From assembly GCA_023396915.1 (NCBI GenBank), contig JAEWUV010000001.1, positions 21,206 to 85,205 on the forward strand: a stretch of DNA of 64,000 nt, in the 5' to 3' direction. Of this stretch, positions 25,759 through 63,405 are shown one piece after another. A model generated the notes under the pieces. It worked only from the letters and a program-made list of their open reading frames with translations, made no database searches and was not told the DNA's origin. Origin of the DNA: Candidatus Parcubacteria bacterium (GTDB taxonomy: Bacteria; Patescibacteriota; Microgenomatia; UBA12405). Numbering within the stretch: position 1 is the stretch's first letter; each line of letters begins with the position of its first letter. The translations under genes were made by a program, and so were the position numbers.

Positions 25759-27282
25759 ATGAAGTTATCTACTAAATCTCGTTATGCGCTTCGCGCTTTG
25801 GCCAACCTAATGGATCAAGGTTGTTGTTGCTCCGTCAAAAAAATTGCCCAAAATGAACATTTACCCTCTGATTATCTTGAAAAAATTTTTGCCAAACTAA
25901 AAAAAGTTGGAGTTCTTGAAGTCGAAAGAGGTGCGTCTGGCGGTTATATGCTTTCTCGTGACCCCAAAGATATTTCTCTAAAAGAGATTATTACCGCCCT
26001 AGAAAAACCGGAGTTTTCTTGCCCTGACGTCTGTCAGTGTCACACCAAAAATCTTTACCAACAAATTCAAACTGGATTTAATCAAGTTCTTAGTTCAATT
26101 AGTCTAGACTCTGTCGGTGATTCCAATAAAACAGTTTATTTAGATTATGCCGCCTCCACTCCAGTTGACCCCCAAGTTGTTTCCACTTTAGTTTCATATT
26201 TAAACCCTAAATACTCCGGTAATTCTTCTTCTCTTCATCAATTTGGTCTAAATGCGGCCCAGGTAGTCGAGGACAGTCGTACTGTTTTTGCTAAGATTTT
26301 AAATGCCAAAGAAGAGGAAATAGTTTTTACTTCTTCAGCTACCGAATCCAACAACACGGTTTTAAAAGGTGTTGCTTGGGCCAACTCTAAAAAAGGCAAA
26401 CACATTATAATTTCCAGTATTGAGCATGATTGTGTCAGAAATTCAGCCCAATGGTTAAAAACCCAAGGTTTTGAGATTACTCAAATTCCAGTAAATCAGC
26501 AAGGCTTTGTTGATATAGATTTTATAAAGTCCAGTATTCGTCCCGACACTGTTTTGGTTTCTGTCATTCATGGCAATAACGAAATTGGTACTGTTCAGGA
26601 TATCCGAAAAATCGGTGAAATTTGTCATAAACATGGAGCTTATTTCCATACAGATGCCGCTCAAAGTTTTTCAAAACTACCTATTGATGTCCAAAAAGAT
26701 AATATCGATTTTTTAACTATTTCCTCTCAAAAAATTTATGGCCCAAAAGGAGTTGCTCTTTTATATGTCAAATCTGGCTCAAAAATTACTCCACTACTTC
26801 ATGGTGGTGGTCATGAGTTTGGAATTCGTTCTTCCACGGTCAATGTGCCTTTAATCGCCGCCTTTACCAAGGCCGCCCAAATTGCTATTGATTCTATGGA
26901 TTCGGAGAACAAACGACTTACTCAACTTCGCGATTATCTTATTAAAAATATTTTAACCAAAATCCCAGATACTCATTTAAACGGTTCCGTCAAAAATCGT
27001 CTTTGTAATAATATCAATATTTCTTTTGACAAGATTGAAGGAGAGTCAATTTTACTTGATCTCGACATGAATGGCATTATTTGTTCTACTGGTTCCGCTT
27101 GCTCTTCACATTCTTTAGAACCAAGTCATGTTTTATTGGCTCTAGGCCAAAAACCAGAACAAGCCCACAGTTCCATTCGTTTTAGTCTTGGTCGTTTTAC
27201 TACCAAAGCCGATTTAGATTATTTGTTAAAAATTTTGCCTCAAACTATCAAAAAATTAAGGCAACTTTCACCCTTTAAATAA
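25759..27282 (+). CDS. iscS: Fusion protein: Rrf2/IscR-family transcriptional regulator (N-terminal, about 120 aa) plus cysteine desulfurase IscS/NifS (C-terminal).
   Basis: N-terminus MKLSTKSRYALRALANLM...GASGGYMLSRDP (Rrf2 HTH) and CPDVCQCH (3 Cys + His). Then VYLDYAASTPVDPQV...HGNNEIGTVQD...SSQKIYGPKGVALLYVK...STGSACSS (class V aminotransferase/IscS). Single continuous ORF. Confidence 0.8.
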   Translation: MKLSTKSRYALRALANLMDQGCCCSVKKIAQNEHLPSDYLEKIFAKLKKVGVLEVERGASGGYMLSRDPKDISLKEIITALEKPEFSCPDVCQCHTKNLYQQIQTGFNQVLSSISLDSVGDSNKTVYLDYAASTPVDPQVVSTLVSYLNPKYSGNSSSLHQFGLNAAQVVEDSRTVFAKILNAKEEEIVFTSSATESNNTVLKGVAWANSKKGKHIIISSIEHDCVRNSAQWLKTQGFEITQIPVNQQGFVDIDFIKSSIRPDTVLVSVIHGNNEIGTVQDIRKIGEICHKHGAYFHTDAAQSFSKLPIDVQKDNIDFLTISSQKIYGPKGVALLYVKSGSKITPLLHGGGHEFGIRSSTVNVPLIAAFTKAAQIAIDSMDSENKRLTQLRDYLIKNILTKIPDTHLNGSVKNRLCNNINISFDKIEGESILLDLDMNGIICSTGSACSSHSLEPSHVLLALGQKPEQAHSSIRFSLGRFTTKADLDYLLKILPQTIKKLRQLSPFK

Positions 27283-27283
27283 T

Positions 27284-27760
27284 ATGGCTCAACCCGTCGG
27301 TTATTCCAAAAAAGTTTTAGAACATTTCAGAAATCCACATAATTTTGGGGTTATTAAAAATGCCACTACTGTTGGCCAAGTAGGGAACCCCGCTTGTGGT
27401 GATGTTATGAAACTTTATTTAAAAATTGACAAAAATAAACAAGGTCAAGATTTTATTAAGGATGTTAAATTTGAAACCATGGGTTGTGCTGCCGCCATTG
27501 CCACCAGTAGTGTTGTTACCGATTTAGCTTTTAGTAAGACCATAGAAGATGCTCTAAAGTTGGACAATAAAGATGTTATCGAGGCGCTCGAATATCTTCC
27601 CGATATCAAGATTCATTGTTCTCTTTTAGCCATCGATGCTCTAAACGAAGCTATTTTTAATTATTACCAACAAATTAAACATTCCATTTCAGAGTCTCTT
27701 CAAAAGAAACACGATAGAATTACTGTTTGTCAAGCTAGGCTCCATGACCAACATCGATAA
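27284..27760 (+). CDS. iscU: Fe-S cluster assembly scaffold IscU/NifU-like, with a C-terminal extension.
   Basis: Three conserved Cys: GNPACGDVMKL, GCAAAIATSS, IHCSLLA. Confidence 0.88.
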   Translation: MAQPVGYSKKVLEHFRNPHNFGVIKNATTVGQVGNPACGDVMKLYLKIDKNKQGQDFIKDVKFETMGCAAAIATSSVVTDLAFSKTIEDALKLDNKDVIEALEYLPDIKIHCSLLAIDALNEAIFNYYQQIKHSISESLQKKHDRITVCQARLHDQHR

Positions 27761-28817
27761 ATTTTCTTGCCCAGATTGCCATCCTCAAAAGAAATCTAAC
27801 CTATTGTTTTTGGTTATTTTTATAGTTCTAGTTTTTTTCTTTTTTATCTTCAATCAATTTAATCTTCTTCCGTTACTTAGTCTTGATTTTCAAAGTTCTC
27901 TCCCTTTATTTTTTCTTCTGGGTGTTTTAGCCAGCCTTTCCAGTTGTAGCGCTATTATTGGCGGCCTATTGCTTTCAATTTCTAAAAATTGGTTGGATTT
28001 TAAATCACATTTATTTTTCAATTTATCCAGAATTATCACTTTTGTCCTTCTAGGTGGATTACTTGGACTAATTGGTTCTTTTATTAATATTTCTTCCTCA
28101 GTTTTTCCAATCATAATTACTACTATTTCCTTAATTATGATTTACTCTTCTTTACCACTTTTAGGGATTAACCTTCCAAAAATTTCTTTTCTCCCCAAAA
28201 AGTTTCTTAACAAAACATTTTCTCAAAATCTTTCACCAATTATTTTTGGTATTTTAACCTTTCTTCTCCCTTGTGGTTTTACTTTTACCGCCCAAAGTTC
28301 TGCTTTAATTTCAGCCAATCCGCTTAGAGGTTCTCTTATTCTTCTCTTCTTTGTTCTGGGTACTACCCCCAGTCTTTTATTAATCGGTTTTTTTAGTTCC
28401 AAACTTTTCAAAAACCCTGCTCTTTCTAAAAAATTTTCTCTTTTAGCTGGCTTTCTTATATTATTTTTCGCCTTATCCAACATTTTTATTCAGGCCAAAA
28501 ATCTATTCCCATCAAAAAACAGTTCATCGGTTGTCATCTCCGATCAAAAACAAATTATCAATATGACCGTGACCAACTCTGCTTATTCCCCCAGTTATTT
28601 TGAAGTCAAAACCAACACTCCAATTGTCTGGCAAATTACCCCAAAAGGTATTACTAGCTGTACCACCACTTTAGTCTCACCTTTAATTTTGGATAAACCA
28701 ATTAATCTTTCACCTTTTCAAAGTACAACCGTTGAATTTACTATCAAAAAGCCAGGAACATATAGTTTTTTCTGTTCTATGGGGATGGTTACTGGAATTA
28801 TCAAAGCAGTCGACTGA
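27744..28817 (+). CDS. Membrane protein with an N-terminal CxxC, a TauE/DsbD_2-like TM domain and a C-terminal cupredoxin-like domain. Putative metal handling.
   Basis: FSCPDCHP, LLGGLLGLIGS...LTFLLPCGFTF TM motifs. C-terminus TTVEFTIKKPGTYSFFCSMGM resembles cupredoxin-like domains, although His ligands are not evident. Confidence 0.45.
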   Translation: MTNIDKFSCPDCHPQKKSNLLFLVIFIVLVFFFFIFNQFNLLPLLSLDFQSSLPLFFLLGVLASLSSCSAIIGGLLLSISKNWLDFKSHLFFNLSRIITFVLLGGLLGLIGSFINISSSVFPIIITTISLIMIYSSLPLLGINLPKISFLPKKFLNKTFSQNLSPIIFGILTFLLPCGFTFTAQSSALISANPLRGSLILLFFVLGTTPSLLLIGFFSSKLFKNPALSKKFSLLAGFLILFFALSNIFIQAKNLFPSKNSSSVVISDQKQIINMTVTNSAYSPSYFEVKTNTPIVWQITPKGITSCTTTLVSPLILDKPINLSPFQSTTVEFTIKKPGTYSFFCSMGMVTGIIKAVD

Positions 28818-28842
28818 TTATTAATTTAAAGGGAGGCCACAT

Positions 28843-28929
28843 ATGGCAGCATCAAAAAAATGTAGCTGCGGTTGCACTAGCTGCAATTGCGGTCCAAAGT
28901 GTTCTTGCGGTTGTAATTCTAAAAAATAA
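28843..28929 (+). CDS. 28-aa Cys-rich metallothionein-like peptide (MAASKKCSCGCTSCNCGPKCSCGCNSKK). Not in the ORF track.
   Basis: Strong SD aaagggagg 7-15 nt upstream and 9 Cys in CxC/CxxC arrays like small fungal Cu-metallothioneins. Followed by a strong terminator hairpin. Confidence 0.55.
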   Translation: MAASKKCSCGCTSCNCGPKCSCGCNSKK

Positions 28930-28932
28930 ACC

Positions 28933-28972
28933 GCCCACAAGATAGCCCCGCTTTTAGGGGCTGTCTTGTTGT
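28933..28972 (+). terminator. Rho-independent terminator-like hairpin (ACAAGAtAGCCCCgctttta GGGGCTgTCTTGTtgtt) after the Cys-rich peptide gene.
   Basis: Near-perfect 12-bp inverted repeat with a T-rich tail. Confidence 0.6.
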
Positions 28973-28989
28973 TATAATTTAAACATCTT

Positions 28990-29448
28990 ATGTTTCTAGT
29001 AAAAGCTGCTTACGCTCAATGCCCGGTTTGTATTGTCACCGTTGGGGGGGGGATGATTTTGGCCAAAAAACTTGGTATTGATGATTTTTTGGTTTCTCTT
29101 TGGATTTCAGGACTCAACACGGCTATCTCTTTTTGGCTAGCTCAAAAAATAAAAAATAAATTTTTTGGCAATCCAATTATCTTGTCTGTTTTAATGTTGG
29201 GAGCCACCTTGTCTTATTTTATGTTTACTGACCAAACCGGTTCTGCCAGTAATCAATTGTTTGGTCTAGATAAAATTATTTTTGGCCAATCTTTAGGTTT
29301 ATTAATTTGGCTTTTGGGTATTTTTGTTGATCGTAAAACACGTGTTTTAAATGGTGGTAAAATTCTTTTCCCTTATCAAAAAGTTATTTTCCCTCTTGGA
29401 ATTTTAACTTTACTAACTATTTTATTTAAATTAATATTTAAGTTATAA
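28990..29448 (+). CDS. Hypothetical membrane protein (152 aa, 4 TM).
   Basis: Hydrophobic segments. No motif. Confidence 0.45.
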   Translation: MFLVKAAYAQCPVCIVTVGGGMILAKKLGIDDFLVSLWISGLNTAISFWLAQKIKNKFFGNPIILSVLMLGATLSYFMFTDQTGSASNQLFGLDKIIFGQSLGLLIWLLGIFVDRKTRVLNGGKILFPYQKVIFPLGILTLLTILFKLIFKL

Positions 29449-63003: not shown

Positions 63004-63405
63004 TTATCTTTTGTCTCCACATTTGAGACAAAAATCTCTGTGAACACAAAGTAATTCCCAACACTTTTTACACGTCCATTTCTTTTTCTGATTATCAAAA
63101 AACTTTTTAAGCCCCAACTTTTTAATATTTTCCAAATTTTCAATCATACTCATTTGATATTTTGTTCTGTATCTTTTATCTAAATCTTTTAGTCGTTTAC
63201 ATGGATATTTTTCACATTTACTCGAACAAAATTCCATTTTATTGTCTTTTAAAATCTGACAACTTCTAATAATACATTTTCTCCCATAACTACTCTCATA
63301 GGCGTCTCTTTTTTTACATCCCGGACATCTATTTTTTTCTCTTTGATACCCCAAACAAAGTCGACAATCCATTCCGCACGGTGCAATTAAGTTTTTATTT
63401 GTCAT
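63004..63405 (-). CDS. DUF3795-like Cys-rich protein.
   Basis: CGMDCRLCLGY...CPGC...C arrays. Confidence 0.5.
   Translation of the reverse strand: MTNKNLIAPCGMDCRLCLGYQREKNRCPGCKKRDAYESSYGRKCIIRSCQILKDNKMEFCSSKCEKYPCKRLKDLDKRYRTKYQMSMIENLENIKKLGLKKFFDNQKKKWTCKKCWELLCVHRDFCLKCGDKR

Follow-up and report, generated by a model that had tools for sequence, protein, structure and literature searches.

A conserved gene for a 28-residue metallothionein-like peptide follows a DsbD_2-cupredoxin membrane protein gene in a Patescibacteria isc operon

Organization of the locus

We analyzed a 64,000-nucleotide (nt) stretch of a Candidatus Parcubacteria genome (contig JAEWUV010000001.1; hereafter the window, to which all coordinates refer unless another locus is named) that carries an unannotated open reading frame (ORF) at 28843-28929 on the plus strand. 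The ORF encodes the 28-residue peptide MAASKKCSCGCTSCNCGPKCSCGCNSKK, a candidate metallothionein with 8 Cys, zero aromatic residues and zero His. The peptide gene is the last cistron of a four-gene transcript, iscS-iscU-dsbD2cup-peptide, in which a fused Rrf2-IscS gene and an IscU gene precede a gene for a 357-residue (aa) membrane protein with DsbD_2 and cupredoxin domains. A hairpin resembling an intrinsic terminator closes the unit.

The small ORF is a protein-coding gene

A first-pass annotation, made from the letters of the window without database searches, had proposed this ORF and its translation, and both are exactly as it gave them. It had counted nine Cys; there are eight, at positions 7, 9, 11, 14, 16, 20, 22 and 24 (29% of residues), in the pattern CxCxC-x2-CxC-x3-CxCxC with no F, W, Y or H. 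The strong Shine-Dalgarno sequence that it described is present as aaaGGGAGG (28828-28836, plus strand), read off the sequence, and its GGAGG core ends 6 nt 5′ of the peptide ATG. Among the 682 window ORFs of at least 20 aa the peptide has the highest Cys fraction (29%, followed by 13% for the runner-up), and at the six-frame frequency of Cys codons chance alone would give about 3.6e-5 ORFs having 8 or more Cys in 28 codons. Trypsin would yield the fragments CSCGCTSCNCGPK and CSCGCNSK. The sole other notably Cys-rich window ORF of real length lies at 63004-63405 (minus strand; 133 aa, 15 Cys, beginning MTNKNLIAPCGMDCRLCLGYQREKNRCPGCKK).

The peptide was indeed missed by annotation, as had been supposed: no gene is called at its position in the source record (906-kb scaffold, ENA ERZ28596294), and the exact sequence was not found in a collection of about 15 billion proteins. 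Relatives of the locus were gathered through homologs of the 357-aa protein, exact-protein look-ups, a genome scan and a scan of metagenomes with a degenerate DNA pattern, and wider relatives of the peptide with a profile seeded with its longer relatives. Twenty-two of the 31 metagenome pattern-scan matches are due to chance, lying inside longer or unopened frames in high-GC DNA.

The first-pass annotation had pointed to relatives that share the flanking genes as the place where a spurious ORF would fail to be conserved. The result is the opposite, in that all loci with the same operon carry the small ORF in the same position. The peptide is identical in four of them (L005, L006, L010 and L104), with 1-5 synonymous and 0 non-synonymous differences, and in L007 and L008 it differs from the window gene by 10 synonymous changes and 1 non-synonymous change (S13T), which corresponds to a Nei-Gojobori ratio of non-synonymous to synonymous rates (dN/dS) of about 0.01. 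Across the same close-relative comparisons the neighboring membrane protein is just 73-83% identical. In a clade whose membrane protein is 54% identical the peptide reads MTTSKKCPCCATKTCTCSSSCPCGCNSKKK or MATPKKCSCCGKTKCTCGPKCSCGCKTK. The spacing of the GGAG core to the ATG is unchanged in L005-L010, L009 and L098.

Two other ways of reading the region were rejected. Since the substitutions are synonymous in the plus frame only, and the Shine-Dalgarno sequence is on the plus strand, the antisense ORFs at 28852-28938 and 28821-28940 (minus strand) are excluded. Read-through of the TGA that ends the 357-aa gene under an alternative genetic code cannot fuse that protein to the peptide, because a TAA follows three codons later. 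The small ORF is a real protein-coding gene under strong purifying selection.

A DsbD_2-type membrane protein with a CupA-like domain

The 357-aa membrane protein (27744-28817, plus strand) matches two Pfam families only, DsbD_2 (E 2e-26) and Cupredoxin_1 (E 4e-11). It had been described as TauE-like; Pfam TauE is unmatched, the protein is of the DsbD_2/LysE type instead, and "sulfite exporter TauE/SafE" is a source-given name on some homologs only. From the N-terminus it consists of a CxxC remnant (C9, C12), a transmembrane (TM) helix TM0, a six-TM DsbD_2 core and a C-terminal cupredoxin domain. An AlphaFold model (AF2, 21 sequences, predicted local distance difference test score, pLDDT, 73) likewise places TM0 and six TM helices before a beta domain and kinks TM1 and TM4 at C68 and C177. 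These two membrane Cys are invariant in our alignment of 21 homologs (A1); one conserved Cys in each of TM1 and TM4, together with the profile match, marks the core as DsbD_2-type.

The cupredoxin-like domain noticed in the first pass is well founded and can be specified further. It spans residues ~260-357 (28521-28814, plus strand), and its profile (A3) retrieves CupA (2mry/4f2e, E 1.7e-11) and the metal-binding domain of Streptococcus pneumoniae CopA (4f2f, E 1.2e-8) from the PDB. Structure prediction of this C-terminal domain gave a CupA fold, for which Foldseek ranks 4f2e first (TM score 0.89, root-mean-square deviation 1.2 Å) and scores 4f2f at 0.87. The family's invariant C...CxMxM aligns with SPC...FACGMNM of CupA, so that the domain has both the fold and the ligand set of a CupA-type cupredoxin. 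The candidate Cu(I) ligands are Cys306 (28659-28661), Cys344 (28773-28775), Met346 (28779-28781) and Met348 (28785-28787); all are conserved, and C306, C344 and M346 are invariant in the 21 homologs. In CupA itself, according to a review, the binuclear Cu(I) cluster comprises two sites, bis-thiolate S1 and Met-rich S2 (PMC7558416).

By the positive-inside rule, from seven predicted TM helices and from loops rich in lysine on the N-terminal side, we infer that the N-terminus is cytosolic and that the cupredoxin domain faces outside.

Annotation of this gene is also incomplete in public data. The source record does not call it (L001, 1755-2828) and has two antisense ORFs of 74 and 86 aa called inside it, and the protein collection does not contain the 357-aa sequence, though homologs in relatives are called.

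Copper-operon context of the membrane protein family

Of the 113 homologs, every one beyond about 50% identity bears an N-terminal HMA domain (GMHCxSC), which matches the metal-binding domains of Cu-ATPases and CopZ. The peptide-bearing clade (P0002-P0014) has HMA in none of its members and shows either nothing at this position or an FSCPDCHP remnant, whose two Cys align with the HMA CxxC. Around the homologs in 80 genome loci, mostly from Patescibacteria, the 147 immediate neighbors include 46 HMA proteins, 38 P-type ATPases, 23 CsoR-family and 4 BlaI/CopY-family members, and 11 of the 80 loci have a BlaI/CopY-like gene no more than 4 kb away. In gut Clostridiales, proteins combining HMA and DsbD_2 (COG2836) have been assigned by inference to the CsoR regulon (PMC4938975). 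These neighbor counts and the regulon inference identify the DsbD_2-cupredoxin membrane protein as a regular, uncharacterized part of cop operons, in which the HMA-bearing relatives are usually flanked by csoR and copA.

The window departs from this arrangement. We found no homolog of copA, csoR, copY or dsbA in its 64 kb. Judged by gene content, the locus in the peptide lineage has lost csoR, the HMA domain and copA and carries the peptide in their place. When the 80 loci with DsbD_2-cupredoxin homologs were scanned for small Cys-rich ORFs, the peptide was recovered in L010 and L064 only, the other listed ORFs being out-of-frame noise, so the peptide is not a general companion of the membrane protein.

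About 17 HMA-bearing homologs carry a low-complexity linker and a Cys/Gly-rich tail after the cupredoxin domain (for example ...GQSCGCGGGK, GGCGGGCDGSCGVTCGSPTCSH and NGCSCNGGCRGSTAGCSMDIK). The tailed homologs lie in P0015-P0069, and in P0016-P0018 a second cupredoxin-like domain is attached through the tail. We count these fused tails among the links between the peptide and copper-binding domains.

A family of small CxCGPxCxCGC peptides

The peptide profile (A4) retrieved 90 small protein clusters at E ≤ 1 (29-92 aa), 34 of them at E ≤ 1e-3, with a consensus beginning MEEKKCNCGPDCTCGCQEGKECTC. All 90 are named hypothetical, and only P0196, a fusion to YtxH, contains a Pfam domain. We define the family by an N-terminal (K/E)KK followed by CxC...CxCG(P)xCxCGC in about 26-60 aa, and the window peptide conforms to this definition in alignment A4. 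It also has the low mass and very high Cys content of metallothioneins, and their CxC/CxxC/CC motifs with few or no aromatic residues and His. By these features the peptide belongs to a new family of metallothionein-like peptides, molecules of a kind already known. The first-pass view that such a peptide is atypical for bacteria holds in that it falls outside the described bacterial metallothionein families, and fails in that its core motif is common to the roughly 90 unannotated bacterial clusters. Searched against the PDB, the peptide and its profile matched only pacifastin-type protease inhibitors (E about 0.1), and we dismissed these hits as Cys-composition noise. A full-text literature search for the peptide motifs, or for metallothionein in the Candidate Phyla Radiation (CPR)/Patescibacteria, found nothing relevant.

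Several relatives lie under or beside regulators of copper type. In L064 the gene for the peptide MTEEKKCTCGPKCDCGCKNGSGCNCG lies some 2 kb 3′ of a DsbD_2-cupredoxin gene that lacks HMA and itself comes after a gene for a Penicillinase_R (BlaI/CopY-family) repressor. A 16-bp palindrome, TACTACACTTGTAGTA, and a TTGACA (-35) element stand at equal distance 5′ of both the DsbD_2-cupredoxin gene and the peptide gene. The sequence TACANNTGTA is the classical cop box, common to BlaI and MecI operators, and it matches twice in the 5.4 kb of L064, where 0.09 matches are expected. L110 and L114 encode peptides near-identical to that of L064, each with a cop-box match about 25-35 nt 5′ of the peptide ATG.

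The contig that carries L064 (DATMWB010000039.1) is labeled "Candidatus Methanoperedens sp." yet has low GC and Microgenomates-like genes. Its DsbD_2-cupredoxin protein, a 92-aa TM protein and the peptide are almost the same as those of L110 and L114, which bear Microgenomates-type versions of two proteins also encoded in the window, P152 and P177 (described below), and L064 is probably a mis-binned CPR contig. Repressors of the BlaI/CopY family with an N-terminal CxCxCx3C motif are encoded at L020 731-1087, L034 2673-3023 and L047 2579-3040, and this motif may be a new way to build a copper sensor on the BlaI/CopY scaffold.

A second type of control is seen for P0163, whose gene sits 56 nt 5′ of a CsoR gene with the C-H-C (Cys...His-x3-Cys) signature. 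Its promoter contains two GC-rich palindromes, ATACCCCGGCGGGGTAT and TATACCAGTAGGGGGTATA, which we take to resemble Firmicute CsoR operators. Dual CsoR sites are reported to be common (PMC4938975). P0191 combines the peptide motif with part of an HMA domain (E 1e-4, under the Pfam threshold), and P0192 has a TM anchor. On the high-GC (72%) contig L096 a gene for a MerR-family regulator (2-885) with the Cys-rich C-terminus GCGCTGHGAFCGC is followed after 5 nt by a 67-aa ORF containing CGPKCRCGC (CGCGCGPKCRCGC). With the CupA-like domain and the HMA, csoR and copA of the homologs' operons, these ties to CopY-like, CsoR and MerR regulators strengthen the first-pass suggestion of a copper or metal handling module.

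A thionein for divalent metals (Zn or Cd), or a general thiol/redox buffer linked specifically to neither copper nor the membrane protein, is another way to read the same family. Cys-rich thioneins often bind Zn and Cd as well, the L096 MerR-family regulator may sense a metal other than copper, several family members occur in contexts without copper genes, and the window has no copper regulator. We nevertheless consider this reading unlikely, given that very short, CxC-rich, His-free thioneins like that of Neurospora crassa are Cu-thioneins (PMC4755600), that the operon partner has a CupA-type Cu(I) site, and that relatives stand under a CopY-type operator or adjoin a C-H-C CsoR.

A NUDIX hydrolase gene lies directly 5′ of a Cys-rich peptide gene in at least two unrelated lineages (L110 285-695, L115 953-1354, L124 4279-4680), with a spacing of 10 nt in L124-L126.

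Linkage to the isc genes

The transcription unit begins with a gene for a 507-aa protein in which an Rrf2 regulator domain is fused to an IscS-type cysteine desulfurase (25759-27282, plus strand; Pfam Rrf2 E 4e-28, Aminotran_5 E 4e-85). L005, L009 and L098 have the same fusion as their first operon gene; it is uncommon for a minimal isc operon to open with a regulator joined to an enzyme. The second gene encodes an IscU/NifU_N scaffold (27284-27760, plus strand; NifU_N E 2e-42), and its 3′ end overlaps the membrane protein gene by 17 nt, an overlap that is retained in L005 (3544-4017 and 4001-5077).

The first-pass annotation had counted the isc genes as part of the metal module. The linkage exists, but comparison with L016 and L033 changes how it is read. 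There the order is IscS-IscU-MnmA-...-CsoR-HMA-DsbD2cup-CopA-...-(thioredoxin-like)-P152-P177, and in the window it is IscS-IscU-DsbD2cup(no HMA)-peptide-P152-P177. As mnmA and other genes separate isc from cop in those two loci, their closeness in the window seems to be a remnant of conserved synteny tightened by gene loss, and does not prove a shared function.

This comparison bears on the idea that the peptide is an accessory of the minimal IscS-IscU iron-sulfur (Fe-S) machinery, for instance a carrier of clusters or persulfide. The peptide is co-transcribed with Rrf2-IscS and IscU throughout its clade, as such an accessory would be, whereas its relatives in L064, L110, L114 and L130-132 lie away from isc genes, and the isc and cop genes of L016 and L033 stand apart. 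The tight CxCxC spacing is also unlike the usual ligand motifs of Fe-S proteins. On balance an Fe-S accessory seems improbable.

Terminator and downstream genes

The strong terminator reported after the peptide gene is present as a hairpin of 13 bp with 7 G-C pairs (28937-28969, plus strand), followed by the tail TGTTATAATT, which is T-rich but interrupted. It folds as an isolated stem in both the minimum free energy and the centroid structure of 28820-28995 (region z = -4.3), and its arms covary with pairing retained in L005, L007, L009 and L098. Directly 3′ of the hairpin, 11 nt before the next ATG, is the extended -10-like element TGTTATAAT (28970-28978, plus strand), which is identical in all ten aligned relatives despite the varying hairpin sequence and, on this evidence, probably gives the downstream gene its own promoter. 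From the 11-nt distance the transcript would be near-leaderless, and the promoter would overlap the T-tract of the terminator. A search of the window against Rfam found no RNA families.

A short ORF rich in Cys codons, followed by a terminator hairpin and then a gene, is also the layout of a Cys-sensing leader peptide that controls the downstream gene by attenuation. We rejected this identity and regard it as hardly credible. The fold offers no antiterminator alternative; the non-Cys residues (G, P, K, N, S) are conserved together with the Cys, at the low dN/dS given above; in L064 and L114 the homologous peptide is followed by a gene on the other strand; and the conserved -10-like element follows the hairpin.

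The downstream gene encodes P152, a 152-aa membrane protein of roughly five TM helices with an N-terminal CPVC motif (28990-29448, plus strand). It has zero Pfam or NCBIfam matches and 329 representative clusters. P152 neighbors the peptide in two gene arrangements: homologs lie 3′ of the peptide in L005-L010, L098 and L107, and one is near the peptide in L114. Many P152 relatives have an extra signal-like N-terminus, some are fusions of 320-370 aa with weak glutaredoxin-like N-terminal domains, and in L114 a DsbA-like gene is the divergent neighbor of P152. The protein may be a membrane thiol-disulfide protein, and its membership in the peptide module is uncertain.

Farther downstream P177 (29503-30036), a 177-aa protein without a Pfam match, contains a WCTSKH motif and ends in ...DCCRE. 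It has 4208 homologs, of which the best 120 are all at least 75% identical, and those that are named are labeled Shapirobacteria or Woesebacteria. P177 is a strikingly conserved, housekeeping-like hypothetical protein of Microgenomates, and because of this conservation we do not count it in the module. Its presence hints at the affiliation of the organism from which the window comes.

With membrane proteins bearing CxxC on both sides, a small, Cys-rich, unannotated peptide could also be the precursor of a ribosomally synthesized and post-translationally modified peptide (RiPP) or a bacteriocin-like product that is modified or secreted. The gene neighborhood makes this very improbable: the neighbors scanned (about 5 kb on each side) include no radical-SAM, lanthipeptide, cyclodehydratase or peptidase-transporter gene, and the conserved contexts consist of copper or thiol genes. 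The peptide itself has no leader/core architecture, and its Lys-rich ends and zero hydrophobic residues are unlike known precursors.

Proposed function of the peptide

We think it fairly likely that the peptide is metallothionein-like, forms a Cu(I)-thiolate cluster in the cytosol and works together with the co-transcribed membrane protein. Its binding of metal, its selectivity for copper, its place in the cytoplasm and the way in which copper would flow are what we infer from its sequence and context. One mRNA would serve for both the membrane protein and the peptide, keeping their synthesis in step, and the largely unstructured apo-peptide would use its eight thiolates to fold about several Cu(I) ions in the cytoplasm. 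It could then act as a cytosolic copper store or buffer, or as a donor or acceptor for the membrane protein. The DsbD_2 core, whose two kinked helices each hold one Cys, would connect to the outward CupA-like Cu(I) site, and its cargo could be Cu(I) or reducing equivalents, moving in either direction.

From the disappearance of HMA, csoR and copA at the locus, together with the presence of a free peptide, we propose that the binding of cytosolic copper, in relatives the task of a fused HMA domain, passed to the peptide. Copper would then be handled by sequestration or relay and not by ATP-driven efflux. Fe-S assembly is a known target of copper, and the peptide may shield the co-expressed Fe-S assembly proteins from Cu(I); the co-transcription may also be no more than synteny compacted by gene loss.

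A broader form of the proposal, which we offer only tentatively, is that the peptide founds a widespread, unrecognized prokaryotic Cu-thionein family (core CxCGPxCxCGC, 26-60 aa), overlooked by gene callers and placed, depending on the phylum, under CsoR-, CopY- or MerR-type control, and that here it replaced HMA, csoR and copA of an ancestral cop operon, its sequestration of copper being coupled to a LysE-superfamily two-thiol Cu(I) relay toward the outward CupA-like site and co-expressed with the Fe-S assembly genes that it protects.

A number of observations weigh against a copper thionein. In the window itself, copA, csoR and copY are lacking, no cop box occurs anywhere in the 64 kb, and the peptide gene stands under the Rrf2/isc promoter. 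Among the relatives, the L064 operator fits only 14 of the 16 positions of the refined cop consensus RNYKACANNYGTMRNY (PMC7253601), and the CopY-like repressors near homologs are without the canonical C-terminal CxC motifs and have an N-terminal CxCxCx3C instead, the closest repressor homologs starting with MSCNCHCNSKC, MNCDCHCNGKC or MSCDCNCNAKC. Family members P0116, P0131, P0151 and P0202 occur in contexts without metal genes. The Cys-rich tails fused to homologs follow a domain predicted outside, and the free peptide has no export signal, so tails and peptide may not be equivalent. The peptide has no match in Pfam (E ≤ 0.1) or NCBIfam (E ≤ 1), including Metallothio_Pro and the metallothionein models, and its likeness to fungal Cu-thioneins is probably convergent. 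Sequence does not reveal which metal a thionein prefers, and for this reason a Zn/Cd or redox-buffer thionein stays in play as a less likely reading.

Bacterial metallothioneins are thought to be rare, and a review covers the SmtA/BmtA type and MymT only (PMC7558416). If the broader proposal is true, an annotation-invisible 28-aa thionein family spread across CPR, Firmicute-like gut and environmental genomes and high-GC bacteria would change this picture of rarity. The locus also offers a way into the uncharacterized HMA-DsbD_2-cupredoxin proteins that are standard in Patescibacteria cop operons, and it illustrates how a genome-reduced organism may manage copper without a nearby CopA.

Comparison with known systems

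The closest known counterpart of the peptide is the fungal family-8 Cu-metallothionein of N. crassa (P02807), MGDCGCSGASSCNCGSGCSCSNCGSK, which has 26 aa and 7 Cys (PMC4755600). The two align over nearly full length (CSC-GCTSCNCGPKCSC-GCNSK with CGCSGASSCNCGSGCSCSNCGSK), and the alignment score of 80 compares with 49 ± 7.7 for composition-preserving shuffles (z = 4.0), 1 of 2000 of which reached it. The resemblance to tiny fungal Cu-metallothioneins drawn in the first pass is therefore real at the motif level. Alignments of the peptide with the human MT2 beta domain and with Candida glabrata MT1 were not significant. Peptide and N. crassa protein share their size (28 and 26 aa), the lack of aromatic residues and His, and an SCNCG-xx-CSC-...-C-x-SK stretch. 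They differ in that the fungal pattern is CxC-x5-CxC-x3-CxC-x2-C with 7 Cys, whereas the window peptide has 8 Cys and other spacing at both ends. With only the central CxC-x3-CxC block in common and no HMM or PDB match, the peptide is not a member of family 8, although both are expected to form a Cu(I)-thiolate cluster.

Among bacterial proteins, SmtA/BmtA (about 55 aa, zinc-finger fold) and MymT (Mycobacterium tuberculosis, a 4.9-kDa Cu-thionein) are likewise small, Cys-rich and metal-binding. The window peptide is about half their size, has no His ligands or zinc-finger-like fold elements, and has another Cys pattern; it does not belong to the SmtA/BmtA type nor, as far as our tests reach, to the MymT family. 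Like the window peptide, MymT was a non-annotated small ORF, in its case tied to copper resistance (PMC7558416). If confirmed as a thionein, the window peptide would be the shortest in bacteria, near the "archetypal" fungal Cu-thionein in size and motif.

The partner domain shares its fold and its C...CxMxM S1/S2 ligand set with CupA and with the N-terminal cupredoxin of CopA from S. pneumoniae (4f2e, 4f2f). CupA, though, is a chaperone held by a single N-terminal TM anchor, faces the cytoplasm and feeds its partner CopA, whereas the window domain comes after seven TM helices, behind the DsbD_2 core, is predicted to lie outside and has no copA nearby. The HMA-DsbD_2 proteins of COG2836, from the CsoR regulon of gut Firmicutes, have the same DsbD_2 core with two membrane Cys. 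The window protein differs from them in having lost HMA save for a CxxC remnant, in having a CupA-like domain in place of DUF2318, in its translational coupling to iscU and in the peptide gene that comes next. CopZ and HMA chaperones, finally, resemble the peptide in their proposed role as cytosolic Cu(I) partner, and the peptide is present exactly where the fused HMA is missing. They have a ferredoxin fold with a single CxxC site, whereas the window peptide would be an unstructured multi-Cys thionein.

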